DNA of 64,000 nt from an uncultured virus (IMG/VR IMGVR_UViG_3300009593_000016) (Duplodnaviria; Heunggongvirae; Uroviricota; Caudoviricetes): positions 1 to 64,000 of IMG/VR virus record IMGVR_UViG_3300009593_000016, one strand, 5' to 3'. Below, piece after piece: positions 1 through 51,200 of this stretch. A program made the position numbers and the translations under genes. Under the pieces are notes generated by a model. It worked only from the letters and a program-made list of their open reading frames with translations. It was not told the DNA's origin and did no database searches. The stretch's first letter is position 1. Every line of letters starts with the position of its first letter.

Positions 1-1
1 A

Positions 2-562
2 TTAGAATGGTCCTGCAATTTGATCAGTTGTAGTTCCGTGTCCCAACTCAGGAAGTGGATCACCTACACTAGGTTCTATGACATCATCGATGTCTGGTGG
101 TGGAGGTAGTGTACCTAGTTCGTATCTAATATCTCTTAACTCTTGAAAATCTTTTTGCTTTGTACCTCCATCATATGCCCAAGCATATCCTTCTTCGATC
201 ATCTGTTCATTCAAAGAAACTAATTCCTCATTAATATACAACCAGCCAAGGAGTCTACCATACTTACCCATACCACCTTTAAGTTCAGTACGGATTGTAA
301 GTTCATCTCCATCACCTGCAATAGTATCTTCTAACTTCTGCTTTAACCAATTAGTAGCATCAATTCCTAATGCTTTCTCTTCTAAATCCCTTGTCCTCTT
401 CTCTGGGGTGTCTACTCCCGCAATTCTTACCCGTTCTTTCTTGTATAAATCGAATCCAAGATCTATGGTGACATCTATCGTGTCTCCGTCCAGTACCTTG
501 TTGATCTCCGTCACTCGGAAGTTGTAACAACTCTTCCTTGATGGGGGGGTCATCGCTCCCAT
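2..562 (-). CDS. Thermonuclease (staphylococcal nuclease, SNase-like) family protein
   Basis: Motifs KVLDGDTIDV, ERVRIAGVDTPE, GKYGRLLG, LNEQMIEEGYA; exact late promoter TATAAATA at 590-597 upstream. Confidence 0.85.
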   Translation of the reverse strand: MGAMTPPSRKSCYNFRVTEINKVLDGDTIDVTIDLGFDLYKKERVRIAGVDTPEKRTRDLEEKALGIDATNWLKQKLEDTIAGDGDELTIRTELKGGMGKYGRLLGWLYINEELVSLNEQMIEEGYAWAYDGGTKQKDFQELRDIRYELGTLPPPPDIDDVIEPSVGDPLPELGHGTTTDQIAGPF

Positions 563-716
563 AATCTAGCTCCAAATTATCTATCGCACTATTTATACTC
601 TGTTCTACTGGTGTCCTATTCTGCTCCGACTGGTAGTCCCTGATCTTCTGCTGCCATTCGTTCCCCAGTTGAGTGGGGCTGGTCGCTAATAACGGGATTA
701 GGATACCAATCATCAT
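360..716 (-). CDS. Hypothetical protein with hydrophobic N-terminus; overlaps the nuclease gene by about 200 nt in another frame
   Basis: 118-aa ORF MMIGILIPLLATS...; long overlaps on both sides make its status uncertain. Confidence 0.4.
   Translation of the reverse strand: MMIGILIPLLATSPTQLGNEWQQKIRDYQSEQNRTPVEQSINSAIDNLELDYGSDDPPIKEELLQLPSDGDQQGTGRRHDRCHHRSWIRFIQERTGKNCGSRHPREEDKGFRRESIRN
590..597 (-). promoter_or_regulatory. T4-type late promoter TATAAATA
   Basis: Exact gp55 consensus about 28 nt upstream of the nuclease ATG. Confidence 0.75.
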
Positions 717-4755: not shown

Positions 4756-4757
4756 AG

Positions 4758-27294: not shown

Positions 27295-30200
27295 TTAGTT
27301 GTCATCAAAGATTTGATCAGGTGTGAAGTTATCAACGGTTGATGCACCGACGTTAACTGTGAGGACTGCGGCAGTAGATAGAACTGGAACTGCGCCAGGT
27401 GATGTAATACCAACACGATATTCATCTCCACCATCACCCTGTTGAGTAGATGTAATACTGATTGAATCAGTTGTTGCTCCATCAACGTTGAGCCAGCTAT
27501 CGGTACCGTATTCCTTCTTCTGCCACTGGTAGGAGAGGGTAGAACCGTTAGAGGAAGTAGCAATTATTACGAATGCAGCACTCTGACCTTGGTTAACTGT
27601 TACACTAACAGGTGGGGTACTAATGGTAATAAATTGCTCGTCAGGAGTTGAACCGCCCTCAGGATCTTGCCAGCCTGGATCGTAGATGTCTATACCACCG
27701 TTTAGAGCAGCACCTGTAGGTCCGAGGAAACTATCTTCAACAGTTGTTTCTACTTGAACAATTGGTTGTACATAACCTTGACCTGCGTTCTTAACATCAA
27801 TACGTGCGAGACCAACTAATGCTTTAATCTTAGCTCCGAATCCAGAGGAAGAAATAACATCAACGTTTGGACGTGTACTATAACCATCACCAGATCCAGT
27901 AAGAACTGCCTTGGTAACACGACCCTTCTCTATAGTTGCGAGAGCGTCTGCGTTACGTCCCTTAACTGCACCAGAGTATTCGAAGGTAATTAGTGAGTTA
28001 GAAGACTCAATTAGAGCAACAGTTCTGTTCTCTTCCTCACCCTCAATTATTAGATCGTCACCAGCTTCAATTGGAGGTACGACTGTAGCAGCGATAACGT
28101 CAACGTCAGAACCAATGTAGGAGAATGCAACGAATGTTGAACCTGCACGAGGTACTTCAGAGAAGATTATACGTGAACCAACGATCTCAAAACCGATACC
28201 TGGTTCCTGTATAACACCGTTCAACTGACAAATAATGTTGTTCTCAGGTCTAATCGTGTTGGACTGTACACCTTCAGTCAATGTTAGTGAGTAGAATACT
28301 CCACCTAACTTCAAGTTGAAGGAGTTACGTAATGAATCAAAGTCGAATCCAATATCATCTAACTGTCTTAACTTACCAACGTATACACCGTGGAAACTAG
28401 ATCCAGCAGCAGGTGCTTCAGTGAACTGAACGTTATCAGAGAATGCAGTGAAGGAGTAATCAGCGCCAGGTGGCTGCAAGATTCCGTTCACGAAGATCAT
28501 CATATGACCTGCGGGATCTGGGAAGTATGGGGTACCGTTATTCTCAGTTAACTTGAAGTTCATCTGAGTTCCATCAAATCCTCTGAAGTATCTTCTTACA
28601 CGACCACGTAAAGTTCTAGCAGCAGAACAAGCACCTTGGAATCCATTGTCACCAATGATTTGTGCGTTCTTCTGGAAGCTTCCCTCACTATCACCTAGGT
28701 GTAAGGTTGCCTTAGTACCTAACTGAGTAATCTTCTCGATTCTACCGTACGCTGTGGTAGAAGTAACCTGAGCAGCAGCAATAAGAGTCCAAACACTTGG
28801 GAAGTTAGAACCTTCAGGTAACTTACCTAAAGTGTACTGTGAGTTACTTGCGATATCAGAAACAGTAACACCCTCAGGAGCGTTGGTACTATTACATACG
28901 AAGAGGTAATTATTGTCCTCATTCTTCTCAGTTATAGTAACTGTCCAGTTAGGAGATAGAACAGCACCACCAGAGAAGACCTGACATACATCACCAACCT
29001 CAATACTATCTGTTACACCAGTATCAGTAATGAATGCAGAGTAAGTTAACCTTGTAATATCTCTTGCGTGTACATACTCACCGAAGTTTGGTAGAGAAGC
29101 GAACGCTTCAATCTCAATAATCTGATCAGTAACTGAACCGTAGATAACATCGTTAGGAGCAAACTCACCAGTAATTGTATCGATATCGAATGTAACACGA
29201 CCTCTTTGGTTATCAAGTAGTGCACCATTGTTATTTCTAACGATCAATGCATTTGCCTTAGAACCAGAATCAGCAGAGTATATCTTATCATTAGCGAAGA
29301 ACTCACCCTGACGGAAGTTAACTAGGATTCTACTATGTGTAGAAACTACAGTTGCGGTACCACCAGATGTTACACCTTCTAGTACGTCTGCTGCATTGAA
29401 TGAACCTACAGGGTTAACAACCTTGATGTAAGTAGCATTATCTGTAGCAAGAACAGATGCAGTATTACCTGTTGCACCTTGTACAACAACTGCTTCACCA
29501 TTAACCAACTTAGGAGATGCTGAGAAGGTGTTACACTCAATGTAAGTAACAACGTAGTAAATGTCTGCGTGATTATCTGCAATTCTTACAATCTCACCAG
29601 TTGCACCAGTGGTTGTACCGTAACATACGTCAGCGAGGTTAATACCACCGTTAATAGGAGTAGGAACATCACGTGAACCGTAAGTTGTTGGTATTCTATC
29701 AATTCCATCAACCCTTGTTAACGCAAGACTATGAGTCTCACCAGTTTGACCAGGATTAATATAAACTGCTTCACCATCAATATACTCGCATAAGAATACT
29801 CTATCTGCAGTAGTATGTGGGTGTACATAATAGTTTTCTCTATCAAGTTCTGCTATCATTGCACCCAATGCAATATACTTGACTTGATCGTAAGCTTCAA
29901 ACCTATGTCCAACAATATCAATACCACCGTTAGATACACTGTTACCAGGATCAAAAGTATGTGATACGTAAGTTGTTGGGTAAGTTGATCTGTTTAAAGC
30001 AACATCTATTAAGTGACACAACGAGTTGAGTTTATCTACAGCAGTCTTTGAAACACGAAGTTCTTTGTCAGTATATGCAGGGGTATTCTCAAAAGCACCA
30101 GGATCTATAGCATCTTGCTCTAGAACATTGATCATATATCTCTTGACAGCTTCAAAGTGGAAGATAACACGAGTTCTGAATAGTTCAGGGAATGCAATGA

Positions 30201-33200
30201 AGGTACCTTCAGAGTCAAACCAGCTACTTACTAATCCAAGTGTCTTAGCATTACCAGCAGTAATAAAGTCGTAAATGAATGCCTTAAGAATATCATCGGA
30301 GAATGTATTGACTCCAGCGTACCCAGGATAGGTACCTAAAGTCTCTGACATAGACTCATCTCTGATATAAACATTGTTATACATCAACAGACGTGCTGCC
30401 TGTTTACCCATTTCAGTACCACCACCAAGTGTATCAAGGATGATATTGAATAATGTGTGTGATGCAGAGGTAACGTTATAGCAGGTACCACCAATATAAT
30501 TTGTGTTGGTAGTAGTAGGAGCAGTTCTAGTTACAGTACTAAGATGACTTGAGTTACCTTGTGCTGCCTGATCCACAGTGTTGATAACTATATCCCACAG
30601 GGTATTAACTGCAGATTGCTCTGTCTGGCAGAATGAAGTACCATCATAGGTTATTGATATGTCTCTACGTACAGCACGATCACCAGTAGTAGGCCACTCA
30701 CCTGGGATGGTCTTCGTAATACCAGCCATATAAGAGTTAGGATTAGAAGCACCAGAACCAAATAGATTGATAGGAATACCCATCAATGTTGTAATACCAG
30801 AAGCTTCATTACTACATCTAGTACCACCAGCATTAGCATAAGTTGTAATAGAGTTGTTATTAGAACTAATGAATGTGTGTGAATAATTACCACCAGTAAT
30901 TACAGATGCCTTAGTTACACAATGTGCTTCAGCAGATATGAATGTATGTGCGTCTGTGTTTGTGGAAGGAGCAGATGCAAGAACCTGTACACTAATATTA
31001 TCCTGATCAACAACAGTGATAGGCATAAATGAGTTGCTAGCTGGGTCAGTAGAACGAGGATATGACTTGTTAACCTGTCCTCCTCCACCAAATCCACAAC
31101 TGAATACTAGTGAATTGTCAGCAATCTTAATATAATCACCAGCAACCATTCCGTGACCATTAATGGTCAATGTCATTACACCTGTTGTTGGGTTATATGC
31201 AGCATCTCTAGGTGTCTTAGTTACATTTGCTTCAAACTCGTGTGAGTAAGCACCACCAGAACGTACTGGGAATTTCTCAGCTCTTATAAACTTATGAGTA
31301 TAAGATCCACCAGCAATGATTGCATTAGCTGTTGCACTCTGCCAAGTATGTGGAGATACGTTAGAAGATGTACCAACGTTAATTTGTATAGTACCATCAG
31401 GTCTTGTAATACCACCAGAGGTAGCAGATACAAATGTATGAGGTGTCTTATCTAAGTTTGCACGACCAACAAATACATCAAACTGATGAGTAGACACATT
31501 AGAAAGTGGTAACCACTCATTATGTGAAGGATCTGTTGCTCTTGGATATGCGTGATCTGTAGCATAATCATCTTTACCACATCTGAATGTGATAGATCCG
31601 TCTGCCATCTTGATCTTATCATTTGCCTTCTCAATACCATCTGTTGTAGCAGATACGAATGTATGAGTTGTGGTATTAGAGATTGGACCTTGACCGAAGA
31701 AGTAACCTACATTGACATCAAATTCATCAGTACCATTCTGATTCATTACAGTCAACCACTTATTACTTGCAGGGTCGGTTGTACGTGGATAAGAATGATT
31801 ACCACCTGCCTGTGTGCAAGTAAAGGTTAATCCATTATCAGCAATCTTAATCTTGTCACCATTAACGAATCCGTGGTTATTGGTTGTCTTAATAGTAAGA
31901 ATACCAGTAGTAGGATTGTAAGAGGTACCTGTAGTTGCAGTCTTCGTAGTAGTAGCACTGAATCCGTGACTTGGGATGGTGAGAGTCATCACACCAGTCT
32001 CAGGTCTGTAGATAGCGTTAGTTAATGTGTGTGAACTAGTTCCAACATTAGTAATTCTTTGTCCTTTCTCGAAGGATGGGTCTCTCTTCTGCTTAACACA
32101 GTTAGTAGCAGCACCAACATAAGTGTGATTGTAAATACCACCACCCTTAATAGCTCCTCTACTAATACTATGAGCAACACCAGATTTGAATGTGTGTACT
32201 GTCTGGTTGGTAGAAGGAATAACATCTAGGACGTTAATATCAAATCCACTGGATGTTACGTTCTGAACCTTAATCCAGTTACCACTAACAGGGTCGTGTG
32301 CTCTAGGATATGTGTGATCAGTCTGATGACCATCCTGTGCACAAGTAAATGTAAGTGCATCGTTATCAATTCTAATATGATCTCCATTCTTAACCCAGTG
32401 GTTACCAACAGTCAGTGTCATAAATCCTGTTGTTGGATTGTACACTGCATTTGTTGGACTCATCTTCTCATATCCAGGTTGGAATGTATGAGTATAACCA
32501 GCACCACCAGCTACAACTGCACCAGATAAAGCACTCTGGAATACGTGAGTTGTTATGTTTGAAGAAGGTGCTTCCTTCAGTACATTAATAACAATCTGAT
32601 TATTAGTAGGAACATCAACAATAGGAATTGATGTATCGTACATTGAGTCACGCTTTTGCTTAATAGCGTTAGTTGCACCAGATATAAAGATGTGTGGAGT
32701 TGTATTAGACTGAGGTACAATCTTATTAACTACAACCTTAAAGGTGTCAGATGTTACATCAAATACCTGTATCCACTTACCTGCAAATGGGTCAGAAGGA
32801 CGTGGATAAGTATGGTTTGTTTGATGATTATCTTGAGCACAAGTAAATGTTAATGCATTGTTATCAAACTTAACCCAGTCTCCATTACCCATTGCGTGAG
32901 CAGCAGATGTCTTAATCTGTAGTACACCTGTCTGTGGGTTATGGTAAGTACCACCAGTGATTACTGCACCAGCATCAGCACTTGACCAAGTGTGAGTATA
33001 GTTACCACCAGTAATTACTGCACCAGCAGTTGCTGAAATAAAGTTGTGAGTTGTAAGGTCAGTAATAGGACCTTGACCACCGTTAACATTAATAGTAATT
33101 GTAGTATCAGTTGCTGCAATAATTGGTAGAGCAGTTCTGTATGCGTAGTCTTCACCATCTCCAGTAGCAGCACCAGAAGCACGTGGATAAGTCTTCTGAG

Positions 33201-36200
33201 TCTGATAGTTATTCAACTGATAGTCACAAGTGAATGTCAATGAATCATCAGCAAGTCTAATACTATCTCTGTTAGCAGTTAAGGTATGAGCACCAATAGT
33301 AAGTACTAAATTACCACCTTGAGGATCGTAAACTGCATTAGAAACGTTGTAACTTACAATAGGTGAAGTACCAACGAATACTGTTACTGTATTACCAGCC
33401 TTAGCAATAATTTCATACTCGTGACCGTAAGTTGGATCAGTAGAACGTGGATAAGACTTAATAGTACTATTACCATCCATCTCACAAGTAAACTTGATAG
33501 CCTCTTCATTAATTCTGATCCTATCTCCAATTGCTAATGAGTTAGATCCAAGGTCAAGTACCAAGTTACCAGTTGTGGCATCATAAGAACCATCAGTAGG
33601 AGTGAAGGAAGTACCAACAATTGCAGTATGTGTATCCTCTAAGTTTCTAGGATATGCGTGATCTGAACTCTGTCCATCCTCATCGCAACGGAATGTTAAT
33701 GCATTAGGAAGTAACTTAATACTATCAACTTCCTTCATAATACCGTTAGTGAGACCACTTACGAATGTATGGGCAGTAGTGTTAGTAGAAGGTATAGCAG
33801 GTAGAACTTGAACTTCAAAACTATTTGATAATACATTATGAACCTGCATCCACTCACCGTGTACCCTATCTGTAGGTCTTGGGTAAGCGTGGTTGGTTTG
33901 ATGACTGTCCTTAGCACAAGTAAATGTTACTGCATAATCATCCATTTTAATTCTGTCACCTGCAACCAAACCGTGTGTAACTGCAGTTTGAATCTTCATT
34001 ACACCTGTAGTTGGGTCGTAAGTAGTGCCAGAAGATGCTGTAATTCTTGTACCACCAACTAAACCGTGTACACCACCAAGAGTAAGAGTCATATCACCCG
34101 TTGTAGGATCATATGCTGCATTAGTTACATCGTGTGAAACTGTAGGAGTTGACCCAACGTTCACAGTGATCGTACTATCAGTCTTAGCAATGATAGGTAC
34201 TCTTGTGTTATGAACAGGATCAGTAGGACGTGGATATGAGTGTACACTATAGTGATCATCCATTGAGCAAGTAAATGCTAAGGAATGATCTCCAATCCAT
34301 ACACTATCACCAACTTCCCAATCGTGAGCACCAATGGTCATTTCTAAGTAACCATTAGAGGGATTAAACGTAGCCGCTGACGGATCGAAAATTCTAGTAG
34401 GTGTTTTACCAACGAAGATATCGAATCCATTTGTACTTACATTCTGAATCTGAATCCATCTGTCTGCGATAGGATCATCAGCACGAGGATAAGGATGGTT
34501 AGTAGCGTGACCGTCCATATCACAAGTAAATGTGATACATTCTTGGTTTAACTTAACCCAGTCACCTGTACCCATTCCGTGATTGGTAATGTTAAGACTT
34601 AATATACCTGTCTCACCATCATAAGAAGCACCAGTTGGTGTATGAGTTAATAAAGCAGCACGAGGATAAGCGTGATCCGTTTGGTAGTTATCCATACCAC
34701 AACGGAATACTAATGAATCAGGAGCAACTCTAATGTTGTCACCTTCATTTAACCAATGGTTACCAAGGGTTAACTGCATTACACCTGTGAGGGGAGTAAA
34801 GACTCCAGTGCTCGGAGTGTAATTTACTGTAGGAGTTGAACCAACGTTAACAGTTACAGTACCTGTCTGTCTCTTAAGTCCATTAGCTGCGAATGCCTGA
34901 TATGTATGTGTTCCTGTGTAAGAAGATATACCAACATCAACAGTGAATGTATTTGTATCAGCAGCTGCAACTTCTAACCATTCTCCAGAAGCAGGGTCAG
35001 TAGGACGAGGATATGTATGGTCACTACCGTAACTATCCTTAGCACATCTGAATGTTATAGCATTATCTTCGAATCTTACATAATCACCAGCAACAGTAAT
35101 ACCATTAGTGGTAGCACCATAGAATCTATGACTTGTAGTATTAGAAGATGTACCAACATTAACTTCAAACTTATCTTGAGAAGCGTTAGTAACAACTAAC
35201 CAGTTACCACTAGCAGGGTCTGATGCTCTTGGATATTGGTGATCGGTAGAGTACTGGTCTTGTGAACATCTGAATGTGATACCAGCATCTTGAATCTTAA
35301 TACTTTGACCGTTCTGAAGACCGTGATTCTTAATGAAGATCTCCATTACACCACTAGTAGTGGTGAATCTTGCACCCTCAGGTGTCATATGAGACTTAGT
35401 TTTAAAGTCGTGTCCATTTAAGGTACAAACTAAGTGACCATTTGAAGGATTATATGTTGCATCAGTTATACTATGCTGTGACTCAGATACATCTTTAATT
35501 ACTAATGCTTCACCTGCAGATGGATCAGTAGCTCTAGGATAAGTATGCTCACTATTGTGATCATCCATATCACAGGTATAGATCAATGAATCATTTGCAA
35601 TCTTGAGGGTGGTACCTTCCTTAAGATGGTGAGTACCAACAGTTAATGTTAAATCACCTGTAGCAGCATCATAAGTAGAATTTTGTACATTATAATGATT
35701 CTCTGGAGTAGTACCAACGTTGACAGTAACAGATCCGTTCTGTAGTTCTACACCGTGATCAACAGCACTAACAAATATATGGTCATAATTACCACCAGTA
35801 ATAACAGCACCTGGAGTTGCAGATACAAATGTATGCTGTGTCTCATTGGTAGATGGTATACGTCCTTCAGCAAGAACCTTAATACTAATAGTAGATAGTG
35901 TGGTACCGATTATTTCAAGAGGATAATCATATGCGATATCCTTCTTCCAAGTGATACCATTGGTAGATGATGAAACATATGTATGATCGTAGTTACCACC
36001 AGCCTTAATAGCACCAGAGGTAGCAGAAACAAATATATGTGGTGTGATATTAGAAGCAATACCAACGTTAAGAGTTATTGTATTATCTTTTCTTATAATT
36101 CCGTTAGCTGTTCCAGAAACGAATGTATGAGCAGTTACGTTTGTGGAAGGAATGTTGTCTAGAACCTGAACTTGGAATGTTGTGTTAGTTACATTAGATA

Positions 36201-39200
36201 CCTGTACCCACTCACCGTTAATTGGGTCAGAAAGACGAGGATAAGAATGATTACCACCACCTTGAGTACAAGTAAAGGTTACTGAATCAGTTCTGAACTT
36301 GACGTAATCACCATCAACCATACCGTGATAACCACTGGTTGTAATGGACATAATACCTGTATTAGGATCATATGTTGTACCAGATACAGCAGTTAATGGG
36401 GTACCTTCATAAACAACATCAACTGATTGATCGAATGATCTATCTTGCTTAGAACTTAATGAACCAGCAACAGCAGATACAAATGCGTGAGTATAGTCAC
36501 CACCAGTCTGTACAGCGTTAGCAGTAGCAGAAACGAATGTATGGGCAGTAGTATTAGTAGAAGGAATCGAGTTAAGAACCTGTACACTGATTGTCGTTGC
36601 AGTTACAGCAGTGATTGGACAAGCAGTATCATAGAATGGGTCAGTAGCACGAGGATATGTATGGTTAGTCTGATGATCGTCCTCTGCACAAGTGAATGTT
36701 AATCCGTTTGCAGCAAACTTAATGCTATCACCAATAATATGGTTATGAGCACCAATGGTCATCTCCATAATACCTGTAGTAGGATTATAGTTAATACCAG
36801 TTGGTTGATAGTTTACTATAGGTGAAGTACCTACATTTACATCAAATGTTGTAGAACCTACGTTAGAAATCTCAAGATACTTACCACTAACAGGGTCAGT
36901 AGATCTTGGATATGTCTTATTAGCTGTACCACCATCCATCGTACAAGTCATTGTGATGGCACCATCAGCAAACTTGACGTAATCTCCTGCTAATAAGCTG
37001 TGAGCAGCAGTAGTTGTAACAGATAAGACACCAGTTGTTGCTGTATAGGAAGCAGTCTGAATATCGTGTGTATTAATCTGATTTCTAGGATATGGGTGTA
37101 GAGTCTGATGACTATCCTGATTACAAGTAAATGTTAATCCACCTTCCTCAATCTTAACGTTATCACCCTCTGTCAAATGGTGTGGTCCAATTGTAAGCTT
37201 CAATTCACCTGTTGTAGGCTCATAAGCAGCATCAGTTGGAGTAAATGGTACTATAGGTGAAGTACCAACATTAACTTTAAACTGATCTGTACCCACCCAA
37301 GTAATTGGTAACCAAGCACCAGATGCAGGGTCAGATGATCTTGGATATGCGTGATCAGTTGCGTGACCATCCATAGCACAAGAGAAGGTCATTGAGTTAT
37401 CAGCGAACTTAACGTGATCGCCTTTAACGAATGTGTGACCAGGTACCCATACGGTCATTAGACCAGTAGCAGCATCATAGTCACCACCAGTAGCAGTATG
37501 TTGTGTTGTAGTAGTTCTAGGATAGGAGTGATTAGTTTGGTTATCGTCCTCTTCACAAGTAAATGTGACAGCGTTGGGTAGTAAACGAATCTTCGCTCCA
37601 GAATTTAAACTATGAGATCCTATAGTAAGAATCATAGTACCCGTAGTTGGGTTGTATGATGCATTACTTACTGCATAGTTAGAGATAGGAGTTGATCCTA
37701 CGTCAATAGTAAATGAATTATGAGTTACACCAGTAGCAGTTAACCAAGTACCAGATGCATCATCAGTTGATCTTGGATAAGAATGTAAGGTATAGTTACT
37801 ATCCATACCACAACTGAATACAAGAGAATTATCAATAAGTCTTACTTTGTCACCATTAGCGAATCCGTGATCAGGAACAGTAACAGTCAAACGACCATTA
37901 ACAGGATTATAATCAGCGTGAGTAGCTGTATGGGACGTAGCACCAATACTTACAATATCTAATGCTTGTTGTGAAGCAGGGTCAGTTGCTCTTGGATAAG
38001 AGTGAATAGTACGATAGTTATCTTGTGAACATCTGTATAGTAATGAATGATCTGAGATGTTTAGAGTTGTACCTGCTTTCAACTTATGGGATCCAACATC
38101 TAATGTTAGAAGACCTGTAGCAGGATCATAGGTAGAATTAGAAACACTGAATGGTACTGTTTCAGTAGGTCCAACGTTAACCTTGAAGTTATTAGCATCA
38201 ATTACCTGTGTAACTGGTAGTATTGCTGTAGATGCAGGGTCACTAGCACGAGGATATGCGTGAGTAGTTTGATGTTGGTCTTGACTACAAGTAAAGATTA
38301 ATGAATTGGTAGCAATTCTAATAGTATCATTAGTAGACAAGTTATGCTGAGGTACATTGATTATCAAATCACCTGTAGCAGGATCATAGGTAGCACCACT
38401 AGGAGTATACTGTACACTAGCAGTTTGTTGATCGATAGTAATTGTCTGATCGTAATCAGCATCACCTTCTGTATAACCGTTCTTAGTAATAAGTAACTGT
38501 CTAACTACCTCAATAGCAATGTCTCTTGCTTGCTCAAAGATGTACTTAACCTCTGCAGATTGACCAGATACGTGCTGTACAGCATTAGCATCGGTAACAT
38601 AAAGTTCAGTTGCATATAAAGTCTTATTATTACCACCGTGCTTAAGGTTGAATGCCATTGCTTCAAGCATATCAACAACGTCATCAACACAAGACTGATA
38701 ACCATATCCAGCAAATGCTAGTGAAGGATACTGTGAAACACCACGTCCAACAGCAGTGGTAGCAATGAATCTTAGGTTATTAAGGATTTCATTACCAGCA
38801 TCATAGAACTTGTTACCAGAAGCATTATCATAGTAATCAGGTCTGAATGTTTGCTGTCCTTGACCAGTTTGTCCCTCATCTTCGTAGGGTAGGAAACCAA
38901 ATTTGTTCTTGACGGCGAGTTGTGACATATCTCTTGCTACCTTGAAGGCATAGAGAGTCTCAGCAGATTGGTCAGTAACGTGCTTCAAACCAGCAGTAGT
39001 ATTAAGGTACAATGCAGAAGCATCCCACATTGAACTGTTACCACCGAAACGAAGGTCGTGAGCAATAGATTCTAGCAAATCTACTATGTCATCTTCACAA
39101 TTATGCTTACCACCTTTAACTCTAAAGTTATAATGCTGGAATGCACTAAGTTTTGTGGTTAGATCAACTGCTTCACCAGCAATTGCACGAGCATTTGTAA

Positions 39201-42200
39201 CAAGAATATCAGCAGCATCTAGTGCTTTATCAGTACCAGTGTATGCTTTAGGATCTTTAACGATCTGATCATCACGATGAACTGCCTCATCAGACCACTG
39301 CATCTGATAATAATCAGAGAAATCAGCAGCAACATCAGCAGGGTTCTCGTTTCTAGCGATTAAGAGGTTACTAATTGCCTTTTCAGCCAACATTTTGGCA
39401 AACTCGATAGCATCGAGCATAGGAAGTAACTCATCTTCAACGTGATTGATATTATCTTGATTATCAATATAGTAATCAATCTGAGCATTTGTCTGATTGT
39501 TACCACCAGTTAGCAAGTCACCAGAAATAGCAGGTAAAATATGATCCCTAAGGTCTCTTACACACTTATTTCTATCAGGGATTTGTAGCTTCTGATCCTG
39601 ACTGAATCCAACAGTAATGTTATATTTGTTTTCGATATGGTAAACTGCTTCATCAGCAATTACCTTTCTGTTAAAGTATATTAAATCAGCACCATCTCTG
39701 AATCTTTGTCCTGTAGGACCGAGAAGATCTAATAGATCAGAAATCAGATTATTAATAAAATCTTGTACAGGTTGTGATGCAGGAGTTGCGAAGTAGTTAG
39801 GAACACGTACTCTAGTCGAATATGTACCAGTTAGAGTAGTCTCATCCTGTGTAATAACATCAATACAGAGTTTTGCAACCTCACCCCAAGTGTAAATTGA
39901 TTGTAGAACTTCACCATTAATATGCTGTAGAGCACCAGATCCTGTTAGATATGCTCTTGCCTGTACAACAGTGTTATAGTTACCACCATCAATAAGGTCT
40001 TGAATAATAGCAGGAATAATATACTCTCTAGTATCACGTAAACATACGTTAGTACCATAATTAGATTGTCCACCATCACCAGGGATGATAAAGTCTGGAT
40101 ATCTAACCTTCAGACGACCAACTGCTTCTTCAGCAATCCAGTCACGGTTCTTATAGATGATATCAGCACAATCTCTATATTCTGATCTACCTAAGTCAAC
40201 ACCCTCACATTGCAATTCTTGTTCGAATAGTTCAACGTAATCAACGTCTGCACTAGAAATAGTAGTAGCAACCCAGTTAGCATAGATGGCACCAACTTCT
40301 AAAGGCATTGGTGCGTCACCAAGAAGTGCCCAAGAGATAGTATTATCATTAGTAGGATAAACTACGGGGGCATTAAAGGTTCCAGAGTACTGGGCGATTC
40401 CTTTGCGGATAATGATACTATCAATGTTACCTGCGAAAGTATCACCAGCATTCCAAGAAGAACCTATTCTAATAGTACTATCAGTGTAATTATTAGTATC
40501 AGTGTAGTTAGCACCAACCTGAACACCAGCAACAAACAGTTTAGTTACGCTGGAGGAACGAGATAGTGCAAAATGATACCAAGCATCAGCAGCACCTATT
40601 TGAGCAGAACTGATTTGATCGGTTCCTGCAATAGCAAGCTTGATACTAGTACCAGAAAGTAAAACTTGTACCTTGGTATCAGAAGTAGATCCACGAAGAT
40701 CTATTAAAGTCTGAGTACCAGCAACTGTTGAAGGTCTAAACCAACCTTCAATTGTATAATCACCAGTACCAAAAGCAACCTTATCACTTGATGGATATAG
40801 TAAATTGGTAGCAGTTCCACTAAATGCTAGTGATCCAGTACCAGTTCTAAAGATTAATGAGTCTGCTACAACGTTAGAGTTGGTAATCTTAGAGTTAGTG
40901 ATGTATTCATCAGCTTGGAAGACACCAGTAACATCCTTAGAGTAGATCCACTTGTTACCAGCATTAGATCCAATAACATCGAATGATGCACCAGATGTTA
41001 CACCCTTAACGTTATCTTCAAATACGAAGAATCCACCAGATGACTTACCCTTATAAGCGTGCTTAGTACAACGAATTGTCTCTTCTTGGAACGCATAAGG
41101 AGGTTCAACACGAGATACATTACCAATAGACCACTGATAAGTAGCAGGATCAGCGAATGTAGGATCTTGTAAAGTATCTGTAATTATGTTGATGAAACTT
41201 GTAATTGCAGATGACTGGTTCATACATCCATTTACATATCCAGTCTTAGCAGTAGATGGAACAGTATTTGTATAAGCAGCTTCAAATGTTGCAACGGTTC
41301 CAGGAGATGCAGTAGTACCAAGTCCAGCGATAATGATATCGCACAAAGTACCAATAGTTGATGCTACACCGTTACAAACAGGTGATCCAGTATCAACAGT
41401 GATTCCACTATCAGTTACCTGAACCCAACCGTGTGAACTATCTGCTTTAGCAACAGCAACGTTCTTCATAATATCAAGTGCCATAGCCTTCGCTTTAGTG
41501 TAAGCGTGAACCATAGTATCAATATCACCAGTTACAGTACCGTACTGTACAATTCTATGACCAGCTTCATAGATGAAGTTATTACCACCGTGAGCAGTGT
41601 TATATGCTAATGCTTCAATAACATCTACTACGTCAGATAAACAATGAACATCTCCACCAGTTACGTTATAACCTGGGTTCTGCTGCTTGGCATAGTATAA
41701 AGATTCGTGAGCAATATACCACTTGTTAGCAAGAAGTAAAGATCTAGCGTCAGCGTGACTGTTATCTACAGGATCATACTCATTAGTAACAGTAGGATCT
41801 CTATATTGCTGTATTCCAGTGTATAGTGCAGTATGTACTTCATTACGGATACACTTAATCATTAGATCACGTGCAGCATTCATTGTATAGACAACTTGAG
41901 GTACTTCACCATCAATATGGTAAATTACTCCACTTTGAACATACTTGTATGCAGTATCCCAAACTTCAGAGTTACCATCGTACTCTAACTGCCAAGCAAT
42001 AACATTACAGATATCAACGATGTCATCGTGGCAATCTTTGTCGTGGTTTAGACCAGGAACGGTAAATGAAGGATAGTAATTCTTCATAATACCTACTGCT
42101 TCCTCAGCAATGAATAAAGCATTCTTACGTAGAAGAACAGCAGCATCATAGGAACGGTTATCGTGTACCGTTCTCATTGAAGAGTTAGCAAAGTAAAGCT

Positions 42201-45200
42201 TCTTATTTCTAATTGAGTCGCCAATAACGAACTGAGAACCCTGTAAGTTCTTATATCTAATTTCTTGGTTCCTTACTTCTTCAAAGTCAAGGAAATCTTG
42301 GTTATTTGCTGTCTCACTGTATAGTTCAGTTGGATTAACAACAGTTTCAGAGATATTATCAAGAATCTTATTAGGGAAGGTAATTGAAGGTACTCTCTGG
42401 AATACTAGACCAAAGAAGAATGATGGAGGTGATAAGTCAACAGTATCAATGATTTGCTGTGTATTATCATCTTGATAAGGTGCAATAGTAGTAATTCTTG
42501 CACATATCTTAGAACGTGCAGAATATACAATGTCATTGTACTTAAGATCAAACTCACCAGTTTCAAACTCAGAAGTACCAGATGTACGAGAAACAACTAA
42601 GTCAGTAGTTACAGTACCATCTATTAGGTTAGTTTCTTCAATAACTGCGAAATCAGGGATAGTATCAAGGTTTGTGATTGTTTCACCCTGTTCAAAGATA
42701 GTATTGCTAGTAAGTGGAGTTACAGAAGCTAAAACACCATCAAAACCAGTTGCAGAAGATAAAACATTATCATTTGTCAAGAATGAACCTGATATATCAA
42801 CAACATCAATAGAATCTACAAGTGAGTCAATTACAATAGCTGTACCTTCATTCTGAAGACTACGTACAATCTTACCTGCAGGAGGGAAGATACCACTAGT
42901 AGAACTAAAGGTAAAACGAGTAATATTAATCTGACTGAAGCCTATTTCACGGAATTTGATCCTAGAAGGTGCTTTAGGTGGTTCATCAAATACAATACTA
43001 GGTCCAGAAGTAGTAAATGATACTCCAGGAGACTGTGCAATACCATTAATCAGAATCATCATCTGATCATCAGTTGCTGTGATTGATTCACCCTCAACAG
43101 TTAGAGGGAACTGGGTTTTAATCCCATCAAAATCATCAGAGATATTATCAAGTTTCTTAACGATAGAAGTTAAGATTTCCTCTGAGTTAGTCAGTCTCTT
43201 CTGTCTGAACAGTACCTCAGTATTGTTGAACTGAGTGTATATTGGTTGTGCGTTAGCAAAAGAGGTAATCTTATTAATATTAGTTGCACTAAAGATATTA
43301 ACTTCCTTAACTAGGTCAGAAACGACCTTTCTTCCTGAAATATCCTTACCACCAGTAAGTGCTAGTTCACCAAACATATTGAAACCAACTGGGTGGTTAG
43401 TTTCAAGGATTGACTTCCTCCAACTATTAATAGGTGTCTGAGACTTAATAACGTAAGAGAAGTTCTGATAGAAGTAAGAGTCTTGGATCTTCTGTACAAT
43501 TTCAGATGGTTTACCAACGTCATCGATAAATTGACCAGTAGTTGTTGTTAAAGCATCAATATTCAGTGTACCCTTAGCGATTGATAGATTATCAATCAAA
43601 CCAGATGCACGAGATACCTCACCAGTTACCCTCTCACCAATAGTCCAATTACCTGTATAGTTCTCAAGTTTAAGAATTCTAGGTCCAATCTGCCATCCTT
43701 GGTTCTCAGAAACATATCCTACAGCAGATGCAGTTTCAATAAAACTTCCTTGATAAACCTTTTCACCTTGTAAGAAACGAGAAGTTTCTACAACAGCTGT
43801 TGCTTTACCACCGAATACCTCGGTTAGTAGTACCTGTCTACCATCACCCTGTGTTAAGAAGGTAATGAAGCTACCAGATTCAGCATCAACAGGGGTTAGT
43901 GCGATCCTTAACTGGTCTGGTTCAAGTGAATTTGCCTCACCAGCAATAGCATAATAAGTAGTGTTCTCACTTAAACTGATCAAACCTGCAGAAGCTGGTT
44001 TTGGTAGGATACCTACAGTAGATCCAAGGTCTTCTGCACGTAAATTAACAGCAGCACCGTTTGTGATACCGTGTGGGAAGTTAAACTGTAAATATCCTAA
44101 GTCAATGTTAACAACGTAGTTAAATTCTGATTTAAGGGTAACTATTGGTTCAGAACTGTATCCTGAGCCTGGTTCCTTAACTTGAATCTCAGAAAGACGA
44201 TTATTCTTAACAATCGCTAATGCTTCAGCACCTATACCTCCACCACCTTCAATTACAACACGAGGAACGCTAGTATATCCAGAACCTGGGTCAGTTATTT
44301 TAATTTCTGTTAGAATAGCGGTATTAAATAACTGAAGGTTCACAGGGAAAGTTATTTCAGGTCTCAACGTATAGTCGTGAGAGTACCCGAAACCAAATTC
44401 GTTGTTCTTCAGTTTCTTAATCTTACCAATGCTTAGACCTTGTAAGAATACAGATGCACCTGATCCTTCAGCAGGAATGATAACATCTAATACTCCACCA
44501 GAACCTTGTAGTAAACTACCTAATATTCCAGGAATACCATCAATATCTACAGATGCAAAGGTATATCCCTTACCAGCAGATATAAGTTCTACTCCAGTAA
44601 TAACACCTTCTAGGTCACCATCATCAGCAACTGTGATGTTACATAGAGCACCTTCACCGTCTCCAGCGATAGGAACGTTGAAATAGGTACCATTTACATA
44701 CTCAGTACCACCAGAAGTTATCTTAATCTTCTCAATTTCTCTGTTTGAAGCAATATCAGTAACAATTGGTAGTTTCTGATAGAATCCACCTGGGTTTACC
44801 AGTTTAATAGATGAAATAGGACCAACTGCCTTAACAGAAGTGGTAGAGTATGATGATCTTGGAATACCAACCTCAGTGTTACCTAATGGTGCAGTTGTAT
44901 TCTCTGGCTCACGAAGTAATGGGAATTTAAACTCCTTATCGTCTGGTACACTAGAAATTGTAAATATACCCTTATATGGAGTCTGAACAACGTCAATAAA
45001 GGAATCTATACCAACTGGATTATCATTAACACTTGTTCTTGAAGGGTCAAAGTAGTAAGAAATATTAGTTACAGCGTCTGTAACCAAGAATTTAACCAAT
45101 GGAGTAGGTGAACTCTCATCAGTCATACCTGGTGTACCTTCTCTAATGATGTTTGTGAATGGATATTCTAGTTTATACTGATTATCCTTAGAGAAACTCA

Positions 45201-48200
45201 AGAAATATCCTGCGTTTGAAGTGTCATCAAGGTCAAATACGTACTGATGACCTCTTACAAAGAGTAATTTAGGATGTTTTGCGTAAATATTGACACTAGC
45301 AATCACACCTTGACTGAATACAGGGTCTTGAATCGCTGTAGATCTCAATCTATAGGTAAATTGCCTTGAACTGAACAGTTCTTCAACAAAGAATGAACCA
45401 TTATACTCATTTGTGGAGAATCCTTCGACAAATATGATCTCATTTGTTTCAAAATTGTTCTTAGTAGTAGCATTAGCAAATACTAAGTCGGTATATGTTA
45501 GTGCACCTGTAGGAATAATGTCCTTATCAAGGTTAGCAGTCAGTTTAAACTCTTTAACACCAACTAAATTACCAAATGTTGCTATATTTCCTGTCGCATC
45601 AACACTAAATGTTAGACCAACAGCATCAGCATCGATGATATCACCCTTAATGTAGGTAGAATCTTCATAAATCTCCTCAATCTTGATGATATAATCAGAT
45701 CCAGAGAATGCTTTCCACCTAGCAAACTGATCTAATGTACCACTACTATAAGAAGTATTAACTAAATCAACATCAAATGATCCAGCAACTCTGGTATATA
45801 CCCAGTTTACGGTACCATCAGAGACAGTTCCTACATTATGTACAGGAGCAGTAGCACCAGAAGTACCAGCACTAGATGCTGTATAGATCTTTCCAGCGTT
45901 ATATACTTCATCACTGACAGCATATACAGTATTTGTAGTCCACTGAGGAATAGTGGTTGTTACTGTAAAGTCATATGCAATGACGTTGATGTCATTTCCA
46001 GTAGATTTAATTAGTTTTGTAGTATCAAATGTACCAACAATATTACCAATCTTACAATTATTAGTTCCAGCTTCAACAATGGTACCGTATGCACTAATAA
46101 CATCAGCTCCACCAATTACAGAATATTGTTGTAATCTATCACCTTTAGTGAAGGTAGCATTCTGATTGAATGTAATAGTCTTAACAGCGTCAATAGTAGT
46201 ATACTTGGCATCTCTTAGGTAGAACTTAGGAATAACTGTTGTTGACATCAACAGTTTCTTACCATTTGGAGTAGGAATGGTTGCTGTTCTAGTAGCATAA
46301 GGTTCATCAGTAGAAGTGAACGTATATGAACCTTCAACGTTGTTTGAGATAACATCAGCATAATCAAGGATCTGAATACCAGCAGGACCCAATACCCAAT
46401 CATTTGATGTGGTAGCAAGGGCATTAAAGGTGAAATCGTTGATGGCAGCGGCGTTTGTTACCTGAATACCTGTCTCTACGTTATTGAGAGTAAAGGTTCC
46501 AAGTTTTGTCTGATCCTTATCAATCTTGTAAGTAAATGCGTGAGTAATCTTTGTGCTACCAACTGCCTGAGCAGGAGTGAAGTTAGCATCATATTTGGTG
46601 ACAGTAGATATTGAAAGGTTATCTAACCATCCACCAACAGATGTTGTTGTAGCAGGAGTCTCTAAACCAAGAACAATTGCTTTCTTAATAGCAGTGTTAA
46701 CTGTTGTACTGGTATGAGAAATCTCTTCGTTACCGTTAATATACACTTTATAAGTGTAATTACCAACACCAATGTTCTGCTTAACGTATGCTACGTGTAC
46801 AAATGCTTCTGCAGCAAATCTAGTCCAGTTAGTAGTTGTAGTGGAGAAATATGTACCTGATCCAACATCTATACTTAACTTTCCAAAGTTAGGACTTGTA
46901 GAATCACCATCTACAGACAATACAGTTGCATCACCAGTATTAGGTGTAATTTTGAATAGAGTTGGTTTGGAAGACTGTGCATTGTACTGTGACTGTCCAA
47001 TAGCAATATATCCTTCAATTGTCCAATCTGTACCTTGATCAGCAGCCCAATCAATCTCTAAAGCGTTGGCAGCAGCAGTTGTTGCAACTGAACTGTTACC
47101 AAACTTGGGTTTTGCATTATCAAGTGCTTCACCTGTACCTTTCCAAGCAATAGTTGAAATATCGTTATATGTGTCATCACCACTAACATCTGTATCAAAG
47201 TTTAGGATTGCAATCTCATTTGCTTCTACTTTGTTACCAACAACTATAGTATCAGCAGAACTATCATTAGTAATAGCAATAGGATGGAATCCAATACCAG
47301 AAGTCTCCTTAACAGAAGCTGCTGTTATAACATTATCGGTATTCCAAGAAACCTTCCAAGCAATAATACGGTTATCATTGAATGCATATCTAACATAAGC
47401 ACCAACATCAATGTTACCAAAGAGGTCAAATTTAACTCCAGTAGATTGAATTTCTTCAAATGCTGTATTTGGAGCAAATAATTTCTGTGCAGCAGGTGTT
47501 TGTAAGTTAGATGAAAGGAATTTCCAATATGCAACACCAGCAGTCTTACCAGTAGCTACAGTAGTAGCAGTAGCTGTAATGTATACAGTACCATAATCAT
47601 CTACAGTTAATTTTGGATTAGAGTACCTATAGGCAGTATTGGAGAATTTACGAGTCCAATTAACCTCAATAGTGGCACTATCATAGTATGTTTCACCAAA
47701 TATGATATTACCAGAACCAGTAGGATCCTCAATACCAACAAACAATACCTTATTATTACCAATAAATTTAATATCATTTAACTGCTCATCACCAGCAGCA
47801 GAAGCAATCTTACGTTTTTCTTCTAAAGCACCATCAGTATTCAACAAACCAATCCACATATCACTTGGATTTGGAGAGTTTGTATCAGTAGTACCAGCAA
47901 TATATAAGTATCCGTTAGAATCTAAATCAACTGAAGAAATATAGTCTCTACGAGTAGATCCAGATATACCAGCAAGTTCTCTCTGCCACTTAATTACAGC
48001 AGTTGGATTGTTGTTTGCATCAAATCCTGACTCAAACTTAGCAACAACAAGATCTGGGTTGTAAGCAAGGTTTGCTGTATGAGGAATAGTTTCACCAACA
48101 ACGTATATTGTATGAGGATTAGTATTAGCAACGTGAATACTATTAAATACACACCTCTTATCACCTGCAGCAGGTTGAATAGGTAACATTGTACGTGTCC

Positions 48201-51200
48201 ACAGCAATCTACCATCACTGTTAAACTTAGCAATCATACCTGCTGAATCACCAGTAGAATCATCTGCTTCACCTACAACGTAGAAAGTACGATCATCAGC
48301 AATGGCGACATCTTTAATTTTTGTTACAGTGGTATTCTCTTTCAAGAATGACAGTGCATATGCAGCTTTCTTATACCTTTGTGGGTGACTGACGCGAATC
48401 TCTGGTGGAGAATCCTTATCATATGCAGAACCTGAGTTTATAATGTTAACCTTATTAACCGCACCAGACTCTTCTCTTACAATATTAAGTTTGAAATCTT
48501 GACCTTGACCACTAATAATCTCGTATGTAGGTGGAATATCCTCTGAATATCCTAATCCTTGCTGTAAAACATCAATTCTTTCAACACCAGCAACAACCTT
48601 TACCTTAAATGTCTTATTAGTTGAATCGATTTGAGGTATACTTTCAACAATAACCTCATCACCAGCTCTAAGATCGTGTTCTTCAGTAGTTGTTATTGTA
48701 CCGAAAGATACGTCATTTTCTAATGTGGAACTGTAAGATAGGACATCTTGTCCCTTAACTGACTCAACTTTAGCAGAAGCACCATATCCACCAGTGTCTG
48801 TATTGTCAAAATATAGTTTATCAGTAACTTTATAAGAGGTACCTGGGTTCTCAACAACAAATCCACTAACTTTAGCGTCTTCAAACTTGGTAGTAGTCTC
48901 AACTTCAATATCAACCTGTGATCTAGTAGAGACTCTAGGGTAGTAATCAAATAATTGCAGTACAGGTTCTTCCGAGATGTATGTTAAAGCAACCGCCTCT
49001 TCTGCATCTAAGATACCATCTTTGTTTAAATCTTCAAGTTCAAATACAAATTCTTCACCGAACTCAGTTACAAGAGTATCAGTTGCCTTATTTGGTTGAC
49101 GCTCAATATCAATGTCAACATCCTCATAAGGATCACGGAATCTAACAACACCTGAAGGAATATTAGTCTGTATAGCATCTTGACTATAGTTCCACTTATC
49201 AGGTACTGAGTATAGTTGAGGACCACAAACATAAGGGAATACAGGTAAACCTGCTTCAGATGCATCAATAGAAACGAAATAAGCATACACACCTTCTGGG
49301 TATTGAGGTGTCTTACAATATCTACCGTTATATTGGTCTAAATCACCATTTTGGAAGACATATTCATAGTCTTCAATGAATGTACCAGCAGCATACTCAC
49401 TTAACAAAGGACCATCAGCACGAATTGGAGTTGGGTTCGTTGCTTCGTCATATATCAATGCTAATTTAATTCTATAAGAAGATACAATCCTTTTAATACC
49501 AGAAGACTGATCATCTGCTTTAATGTACCCATAAGGACCGTAAATTGGGTTTCCATCAAATGACCAACCTATAATTGGTGAGTGTGATAATCCAGCATCC
49601 AATTCTCTAAGATTGCCTGTAGCAGGATCTCTATAGACATTATCACCAAGAACAAATCTTAATTGTTTAGGATCGGATACGTGTGCGTATTCACCACCAT
49701 ACTGAGTGTTATATCCAGCAAATACGTATCCTCTAGCAGGGTCTAAGTTACCATATTGCTCTGTTTCTAAGTTCTTAGTCCACTCAAATACATTTGCAGT
49801 AAATGTGGCAAGTTCACCAACTGCTTCTAATCTAATAGTTGTTGTACCAGTATTATATCCAACACCACGGTTTTCAACGGAAACAGTAAGTACCTTACCT
49901 TTATCTTCTCCACTAGTACCAATAGTTGCTTTACCAACAGCACCATATCCTTCACCATTAATAATAACTTTTGGAGGTGAAGTATATCCATCACCAGAAG
50001 CAATAACAGCGATTGAAACAATACGACCGTTAATAACGATTGGTTGTGCAACAGCACCTTCACCAGAGTTCAGTTTGATTGTTGGTGAAGAAGTATATGA
50101 TTGTCCTGCATTAGTGACTGCAATGCTCTTAATAGGACCACGTACAGCAGCACTTGCAGTTGCACCTGCTCCATCACCACCAGATATAGAAACTAGTGGT
50201 TCTGAAGTGTACTCTTGACCAGGATCTCCGACAAGAATCTTAGTTACTACACCATTAGTAATAACAGCAGTAGCAGTAGCACCAAATCCACCACCACCTA
50301 CAATACTAACAAGAGGACTAGAAGTGTACCCAGTACCACCTGAGGTGACATCAATTTCATATAGTGAACCATTTACTACAACAGAAGCAGCAGCACCAGC
50401 TCCACCACCACCTGTAATTTCGATAGCAGGAGTCGCTGCAGCGTCATATCCTTTACCAACATTGGTAATATCGATACCTGTAACACCACCATACTTAATC
50501 TTGCTCTCAGACTTATAAGACCAAGCAGCAACACCATTAACCCAGGTACCTATAGGTCCAAATTCAGTTAAGGGACGTTCTGATACAGTTTCTACTATTC
50601 TTGGAATTCTACTTAATTTTCTTTGGTTACCTGGAATTAGGGCAGATCCTATGAAAGGTCCAACCTTATAGTTTGGTATACCAGTCGTTGCAACATAAGA
50701 ATAGTTGTCATTGAAGAAAACATTCTGTATATTGGTAGTAAAGTCTTTTATAGTACCACTAATACTCTCAACATCAGACTTACCTCTGTTCAAGTCAACT
50801 GACATCAAGATATTACCCTGTGGAGGGTTCGGTGAAGGAGCCTCTATCTGATAGGAGAACGTAGTAGCATTAATACGTGATGTTACTTCAAACGTACCAT
50901 TGAAGATCGTTGGGTTAGCACCATAGATGGTTACAGCATCTCCAACTAACAAACCGTGATTATTAACGCTATAAACGGTTGCAGTCTGATTATTCAGACC
51001 ACCTGGCTCAATATTAGTAACTGAGATCAGTTTCTTGACGTTATAAAGCCAAGATGTTATCTTTTTATCAGTAGTAGAAGAACCAAGCGATGCAACGTTT
51101 AGTTTATCACCAGCCAAGTAATAAGAACCAGTGTCAGACAGAACGGTTCCAGTTGCTTCAGCAATACCCAAAATACGAAGTTTTACTTCAGTATCAAGCC

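Follow-up and report, generated by a model that had tools for sequence, protein, structure and literature searches.

A giant baseplate-position protein of a marine cyanophage contains split domains predicted to be nested and to adopt a phycobiliprotein beta-type fold

Organization of the giant ORF and its split helical repeats

The window analysed here is the whole 64,000-nucleotide stretch (positions 1 to 64,000) of the uncultured virus record IMGVR_UViG_3300009593_000016, a 77 kb record that is 43% complete. Its minus strand carries a T4-like tail and baseplate cluster, in which an uninterrupted giant open reading frame (ORF) of 8862 amino acids (27295..53883 (-)) occupies the position of gp7, the baseplate wedge initiator, with the gp6 gene (53898-55991 (-)) upstream and a gp9/10-like gene and gp8 downstream. 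The subject of this analysis is a set of seven helical repeats in this protein, predicted to be diverged relatives of the phycobiliprotein beta subunit and, in several cases, split by insertions. The ORF matches PHROG 701 (E=0), its orthologs are annotated as gp7 or baseplate wedge initiator, and its match to the baseplate-wedge profile PF23786 (E 3.7e-5, 23.8 bits) lies below the cut-off of 27. Judged from the sequence, this protein probably belongs to the tail baseplate of a virus that infects marine cyanobacteria. The region is present at 99% identity in three IMG/VR contigs and is thus not an assembly quirk of one record.

A full scan of the giant ORF recovered seven openers (O1–O7) and seven closers (C1–C7) in the order O1 O2 C1 C2, O3 C3, O4 O5 O6, insert, C4 C5 C6, O7 C7, that is, a-b-a-b-c-c, a-b-c, a-b-a-b-a-b-[insert]-c-c-c, a-b-c. 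The openers span amino acids 3907–4033 (O1), 4040–4165 (O2), 4566–4700 (O3), 4724–4872 (O4), 4883–5006 (O5), 5022–5152 (O6) and 7822–7945 (O7). In a tblastn search, three openers hit 352 phage records, and each of these carries the name Synechococcus phage, Prochlorococcus phage or Cyanophage.

The first-pass annotation had proposed that repeats 4–6 end without a final helix, which is supplied by three helices beyond the beta region, and that repeats 1–2 are followed by two such helices and repeats 3 and 7 by one each. Both proposals agree with the scan, and the five closing helices it quoted were located at amino acids 7689 (nucleotide 30819), 7751 (30633), 7800 (30486-30427), 4169 (41379) and 4219 (41229). 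In a leave-one-out profile test over 8704 positions, run with and without the Cys column, C4, C5 and C6 each rank 1 (25.7, 27.8 and 31.6 bits; best other site 6.5–7.7 bits) and keep that rank without the Cys column. C1, C2 and C3 likewise rank 1, and C7 is weak, at rank 26 and at rank 52 without the Cys column. O4–O6 (39714-38428) and C4–C6 (30819-30424) flank a beta insert of 2535 amino acids.

Fold of the repeats

The phycobiliprotein family PF00502 matches the stretch holding O1–O6 with 33.3 bits summed over 1261 amino acids (cut-off 22.2; best single domain 17.4). A profile of the unsplit domain 3 (O3+C3, 39718..40188 (-)), itself matched by PF00502, was compared with PDB sequences, and the best 60 of 71 matches were all phycobiliproteins or their derivatives (best E 6e-4). 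An AlphaFold model was obtained for O3 to C7 of an insert-less relative, L088, which shares 64% identity with the window (alignment of 27 rows; mean predicted local distance difference test score, pLDDT, 73; predicted template modelling score, pTM, 0.61). In this homolog model, domain 3 including its closer superposes on residues 34–177 of phycoerythrin beta with a Z of 17.4 and a root-mean-square deviation (RMSD) of 2.3 Å over 139 residues, so that an opener corresponds to predicted helices A–G and a closer to a predicted displaced helix H. In a comparison with 48,161 representatives, phycobiliproteins made up the eight top-scoring chains (Z 12.8–16.0), followed by other globins with Z up to 11.8, and O2+C1 in a model of the window itself matched beta subunits at Z 13–15. 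A Foldseek search with the 869-residue model gave nothing at E ≤ 0.001, phycobiliproteins surfacing at E 0.09–0.4; a protein atlas search gave no usable match, and a word-based protein search found 4 relatives only. The N-terminal X/Y helices are absent, single-domain alignments beginning at beta residue 32–34. Collectively, the seven helical repeats are predicted to be diverged phycobiliprotein beta-type globin-fold domains.

A separate observation concerns several cryptophyte beta chains, which align over residues 4–177 on the model of O1-O2-C1-C2 (41317-42168 (-)) with RMSD values of 2.8–3.3 Å. In these alignments, part of O1 replaces helices X/Y beside O2, and neighbouring domains may pack there.

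Pairing of openers and closers

Pairing was inferred from the first and last aligned residues of natural single-chain models rather than from contacts. For the N-terminal block, O1-O2-C1-C2 of the window was modelled from 25 rows (pLDDT 80, pTM 0.72). O2 (41389..41766 (-)), helices A–G of domain 2, would lie within the G-H loop of domain 1 and be completed by C1 (41317..41379 (-)), its range of 135..284 corresponding to beta 34..172/177. O1 (41785..42165 (-)), helices A–G of domain 1, would be completed by C2 (41167..41229 (-)), with a range of 2..334 equivalent to 32..158 of 9i1r_A (Z 13.6). In a wide search with this model, O1-C2 was spanned by 27 of 50 rows and O2-C1 by 12 of 50, and no row with an O1 start at helix A ended at C1. 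Rows covering 1..284 start at beta residues 1–16 and thus reflect X/Y added to O2+C1 rather than forward pairing.

For the three-deep block, globin matches in the L088 model cover 454-459..611-616 for the innermost domain, formed by O6 (38428..38820 (-)) and C4 (30757..30819 (-); model ranges ending 609-616). The middle domain, O5 (38866..39237 (-)) with C5, is represented by a range of 320..676 in one row (Z 9.3). In 8 insert-less relatives, O6 continues straight into C4, which is directly next, and the Cys-to-Cys spacing from O6 to C4 is 92 in 7 of these 8, the eighth having an extra Cys; the spacing is 89 for O2-C1, and the family median is 97 (n=177). A G-H linker motif, which with C5 occupies 30571..30672 (-), occurs at 0/28 O5 ends, in 22/22 sequences before C5, in 0/25 before C2 and in 0/22 before C6; a simple pattern finds it at 5/28 O4 ends. 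This distribution fixes O5-C5 and leaves forward and reverse order for the outer two unseparated. The outermost domain, O4 (39268..39714 (-)), would take C6 (30424..30486 (-)) as its helix H by elimination only.

The earlier proposals that the domains are split and completed by the returning chain are thus borne out by model ranges and insert-less relatives, at the level of predicted structures. Reverse-order pairing, likewise proposed, is supported by the AlphaFold models for O6-C4, O5-C5, O2-C1 and O1-C2 as a prediction, and for O4-C6 it is inferred by elimination. Of the helical stalk that the first-pass annotation envisaged, completion by the returning chain stands and the two-stranded architecture does not: the units are predicted globin-fold domains short of helix H only, which points to a predicted nested stack of globular domains.

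The beta insert and insertion sites in relatives

The insert (30820..38427 (-)) contains 24 small beta units with a YPR motif and shows a weak match to PF16190, below the cut-off. About 21 later H-x-F closing strands are interleaved with the YPR units (30820-38427 (-)), consistent with a nesting of its own. Among 28 non-redundant relatives in which both ends are present, the insert measures 0 amino acids in 8, 112 in 3, 538–539 in 7, 748 in 2 and 2191–2660 in 8, with 0, 1, 5, 7 or 20–25 beta units. C4–C6 are retained in relatives without the beta insert; S-WAM1, for example, has the same three-plus-three block and no insert.

For the family as a whole, 180 sequences were scanned, of which 151 contain at least 3 core pieces; these comprise 44 with Cys-type closers, 69 tandem arrays and 38 intermediates that were excluded from the class comparison. 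No closer precedes its opener in 44 of the 44 Cys-closer proteins, compared with 11.2 expected from shuffled order, a count over related members chosen for having closers and not a formal probability. Opener and closer numbers are equal in 26/44 and within one in 40/44. Nesting in relatives makes use of two insertion sites, the B-E loop and the G-H loop, and reaches about 10 deep. S-MbCM7 nests the domain four deep. In P-TIM40 (L154, frame from locus base 3, amino acids ~4975-5400), the O6 equivalent has its insert, of ~320 amino acids, in the B-E loop and not in the G-H loop, which marks the second insertion site. The tail-fibre-type proteins P0045, P0032, P0011 and P0018 show B-E loop nesting 6–10 deep with matched counts. 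Other tail-fibre-type proteins (P0006, P0007, P0010, P0012 and P0024) carry 20–34 un-nested tandem copies, which keep C-x-R-D and have lost the helix-H Cys and most of the Asp39 equivalents.

Conserved cysteines and putative bilin sites

For comparison with the repeats, 110 sequences of beta subunits were taken from cyanobacterial genomes. When O2+C1 is aligned by hhalign (probability 57%, E 1.5e-5), its Asp falls on beta Asp39, its helix-E Cys on Cys82 and its closer Cys on Cys153, and the model ranges of the window agree with this mapping if it is ungapped (model 284 = beta 172 or 177). Run on real beta chains, the closer profile scores highest at the Cys153 register in 86/110, and in 28/110 without the Cys column. 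Both positions are bilin sites in beta subunits. In published work, C-x-R-D is the common bilin attachment motif (PMC10151467), T-type lyases act on Cys-beta155 and CpcS on Cys84 (PMC2327270), and beta-Asp39 binds the pyrrole nitrogens of the beta-153 bilin (PMC6614406).

In the window, the Cys and Asp of the C-x-R-D site (Cys82, Arg84, Asp85) are present in 6/7 domains, as in O1 (Cys3951-x-x-Asp, alongside Asp3913) and O4 (Cys4774-x-Arg-Asp, alongside Asp4730), and are invariant in relatives; the helix-E Cys and the Asp of O1–O6 are invariant in 22–28 relatives per domain. The second site, Cys153/158 with Asp39, is present in 5/7 domains. The closer Cys residues are Cys4170 in C1, at the beta-153/158 position, Cys4220 in C2, and Cys7690, Cys7752 and Cys7801 in C4–C6; all five are invariant in relatives, those of C4–C6 in 22/22. 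Domain 3 keeps C-x-R-D, has a helix H without Cys and contains two other invariant Cys residues (4572, 4673). In the unsplit domain 7 (O7+C7, 29992..30420 (-)), the equivalents of Asp39, Cys82 and Cys153 are all lost together.

The two classes of family members differ in the same residues. Asp39 is found in 209/209 of the Cys-closer class, and the tandem class, without helix-H Cys, has Asp at this position in 21% and Asn in 79%. These figures overstate the coupling of Asp39 to the closer Cys, since a profile-free motif count gives 74% vs 10%. In the tandem class, the C-x-R-D Cys is kept in ~100% of 762 copies, and Cys occurs in just 41/615 following segments (574/615 without), so that the helix-E Cys is mostly unpaired there. 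Within one subunit, a long distance separates the beta-82 site from the beta-153 site. On both grounds, a general opener-closer disulfide was rejected as unlikely. As predicted from the sequence, bilin attachment suits the conserved cysteines better than do disulfides between opener and closer, O1-C2 being a possible exception.

There are two candidate disulfides. In O1, helix G ends with an additional invariant Cys (Cys4011), which could pair with the C2 Cys (4011/4220), and O3 has its second invariant pair, 4572/4673. Both pairs would sit close to the pocket of beta-153, and their two domains are those with the most variable Asp39.

Distribution of cpeT and bilin genes

The lyase-type gene cpeT (PF06206) was found in 8/8 cultured phages fetched for having the domain and in 2/3 near-complete close relatives. 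A further 10 phages comprise 5 with domain and cpeT (P-SSM4, P-HM2, Syn9, P-SSM7 and Syn1), 4 with neither (P-SSM2, S-SM2, S-SSM7 and S-CRM01, absence being called from a loose first-look search) and 1 with the domain only, for a Fisher p of 0.024 uncorrected for kinship. Overall, 13/14 domain-bearing cultured phages have cpeT. In S-PM2 and S-MbCM7, cpeT lies 3–4 genes upstream of the protein with these domains. The domain and phage cpeT thus tend to travel together, with exceptions. A link to bilin reductase was considered and rejected, a reductase being present in 10/21 genomes, including the domain-free P-SSM2 and S-SSM7. Two adjacent short cpeT-like genes occur in each of four close relatives (L170–L173; G007, G006, G001 and G002).

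Gasper and colleagues are said to have reported in 2017 that phage CpeT binds phycoerythrobilin, with no target demonstrated. The benefit of phage bilin genes has been called unclear (PMC2984593). In another study, P-HM1 and P-HM2 show no adsorption in the dark and P-SSM2 does; the light-dependent adsorption of S-PM2 is independent of host photosynthesis; and the light requirement was ascribed to the host receptor and/or the tail fibre, without a decision between them (PMC6628666). In our genomes, P-HM1 and P-HM2 have domain and cpeT, and neither was found in P-SSM2, a comparison of three or four phages that is an anecdote rather than a test.

Proposed mechanism and alternative explanations

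The stack may have arisen as whole domains entered the G-H loop of a copy already in place, each insertion pushing helix H further downstream. Each outer domain would then be closed by the returning chain, and the innermost loop would serve as a socket for zero to ~25 beta units; in relatives, the B-E loop would serve as an insertion site likewise. Taken jointly, the sequence pattern, the predicted fold with its pairing, and this insertion history appear highly probable. Two chain passes per outer domain would make a stiff support that tolerates exchange of tip modules, and the stack is probably such a support for a variable tip. During infection, the beta-82 site could receive a bilin, and so could the beta-153 site, there probably through a T-type lyase such as phage CpeT. 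The beta-153 site needs Asp39 of the opener and Cys153 of the closer and would therefore exist only after pairing. We give slightly better than an even chance to the complete proposal, namely a nested phycobiliprotein-beta-like stack in which the closers are helix H of repeats 6, 5 and 4, the innermost loop holds the insert, and the cysteines are likely bilin-binding. That bilin is indeed attached to the conserved cysteines, so that the virion would carry pigment, is by itself an evenly balanced prediction from sequence and models.

A number of observations weigh against parts of this proposal. For the fold, the best single-domain PF00502 score stays below the cut-off (17.4 against 22.2 bits), and helices X/Y, which mediate alpha-beta pairing in beta subunits, are missing. 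For the pairing, the evidence consists of aligned ranges, the three-deep model comes from a 64%-identical relative (pLDDT 73, pTM 0.61), and O4+C6 is covered by no row in the searches with that model. For the sites, hhalign yielded no alignment for O3C3, and for O6C4 one that misplaces the register of helix H, at a probability of 9.6%; the Arg of C-x-R-D occurs in 2/6 Cys-bearing openers of the window, O3 and O4 only; Asp39 is Asn in 15/25 O1 and 7/28 O6 copies of close relatives that keep the closer Cys; the profile-free count yields the weaker coupling given above; and the tandem-class C-x-R-D may persist for another reason if the hosts are not cyanobacteria. Ring D of the beta-153 bilin is moreover held by alpha-chain residues in phycocyanin (PMC6614406). 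For the lyase, S-SKS1, whose single complete domain keeps all four residues, shows no cpeT match, no cpeT match was found in G003 (94% complete), and none was found in the window's own record, which is 43% complete; a protein search for cpeT in G003, G010, S-SKS1, P-SSM2 and S-SM2 found nothing, in a search that had no positive control. Nor does the presence of bilin reductase genes follow that of the domain, 9/14 domain-bearing cultured phages being without one.

It is a serious though lesser possibility that the same nested stack is purely structural, a host beta-subunit fold used without pigment, with cysteines for packing, as free thiols or in disulfides that form between domains after lysis. 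In phage tail-fibre proteins, tandem arrays reach 34 copies and resemble a building block, and the change of Asp39 to Asn in O1 and O6 of relatives, the extra invariant Cys of O1 near the expected C2 Cys, the second invariant pair of O3 and the cpeT exceptions among domain-bearing phages all suit such a role. Yet both cysteines stand at the two bilin positions with acidic partners, the helix-E Cys is invariant even where a partner Cys is found in only 41/615 segments, and beta-82 and beta-153 are too distant in one subunit for an intradomain bond. The conserved site residues and the co-occurrence with cpeT would also suit domains that bind bilin or host antenna or lyase proteins in the infected cell, as a pigment sink or decoy, with no role in the released particle; this is very unlikely, however, with all copies seen lying in large virion-type proteins and with nesting and a variable tip suggesting a mechanical role.

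The closers might also complete the openers otherwise, in forward order or swapped between neighbouring copies in the six-fold baseplate. Single-chain models cannot reveal inter-chain swapping, and the linker motif fixes O5-C5 only, a pairing that is balanced under forward order too. However, O6 runs into C4 at normal spacing in insert-less relatives, and the models yield O6-C4, O2-C1 and O1-C2, with no row leading from helix A of O1 to C1; other pairings are accordingly improbable, by a hair less so than the pigment sink. That the openers fold alone, the three helices forming their own bundle or belonging to the beta region, is hardly credible: the closers persist in proteins that lack the beta insert, resemble the helix H of real beta subunits and follow the openers in number across 44 proteins.

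Beyond the nested, putatively bilin-binding stack that we favour lies a bolder and rather unlikely extension, in which cyanomyovirus particles are biliproteins, CpeT loads host bilin onto the nested baseplate and fibre domains, and the pigmented stack exerts light-responsive control of the beta array and of adsorption. If true, this would account both for phage cpeT and for light-dependent adsorption that is independent of photosynthesis.

Other features

A LamG/concanavalin-like domain (PF13385, E 2e-14; 40384..40896 (-), limits approximate) lies between domains 1–2 and domain 3. YHYH domains (PF14240) occur in the giant protein (~49260-49710 (-)) and in the next gene (25913-27286 (-)). A structural protein of 2134 amino acids (6429-12833 (-)) has Ala/Thr-rich repeats in its last 250 residues. 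The annotation of S-PM2 places sixteen tRNA features within its fibre gene (L157, NC_006820.1 168556-173383), probably through a coordinate error.

Comparison with known systems

The results provide a predicted fold and an assembly logic for one of the largest unexplained structural proteins of cyanomyoviruses, and suggest how nested insertion can lengthen a giant virion protein and exchange its tip. If the predicted bilin sites are used, a virus particle may carry pigment. A 150-residue fragment makes the question of the phage CpeT target directly testable, and also that of the light-requiring, photosynthesis-independent adsorption of cyanophages.

Among known proteins, the phage domains most resemble phycobiliprotein beta subunits (CpcB, CpeB and cryptophyte beta; PF00502), with which they share the predicted globin-type A–H fold at the Z and RMSD given above (17.4 and 2.3 Å) and Cys82/Asp85 and Cys153/Asp39 in register. 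Unlike beta subunits, they have no X/Y helices, share 14–19% identity with them, often lose the Arg of C-x-R-D, possess a longer G-H loop that accepts whole domains and are repeated inside a virion protein, their pigment binding being putative. Bilin-biosynthesis-associated globins (BBAGs), or photoglobins, are likewise globins with C-x-R-D or C-x-Q-D, and BBAG-1 and BBAG-3 bind bilins without lyases; they belong to cellular organisms, beside bilin genes, whereas phages are mentioned for bilin reductases only in the accessible part of that article (PMC10151467). The phage domain models match beta subunits best. As for the T-type lyase CpcT/CpeT (PF06206), whose substrate is Cys-beta153/155, the phage closer Cys belongs to the same site class; unlike the antenna substrate, the putative phage substrate would be the virus's own structural protein, in a 43%-complete record without cpeT.

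The giants at the position of T4 gp7 in cyanomyoviruses (PHROG 701; S-WAM1, S-RIM8 and P-TIM40) occupy the same slot, after gp6 and before the gp9/10-like gene and gp8. S-WAM1 shares the three-plus-three block, the protein of the window reaching 8862 amino acids, and the annotations of these giants read structural protein or baseplate wedge initiator only, with no mention of these domains. No description of nested phycobiliprotein-type domains in a virion protein was found in the literature searched; supplementary annotation tables of genome papers might mention a PF00502 match. Thus, the globin-type fold and nested insertion are each of a known kind, and the new part, as far as the literature found goes, is their predicted use together in a virion protein.

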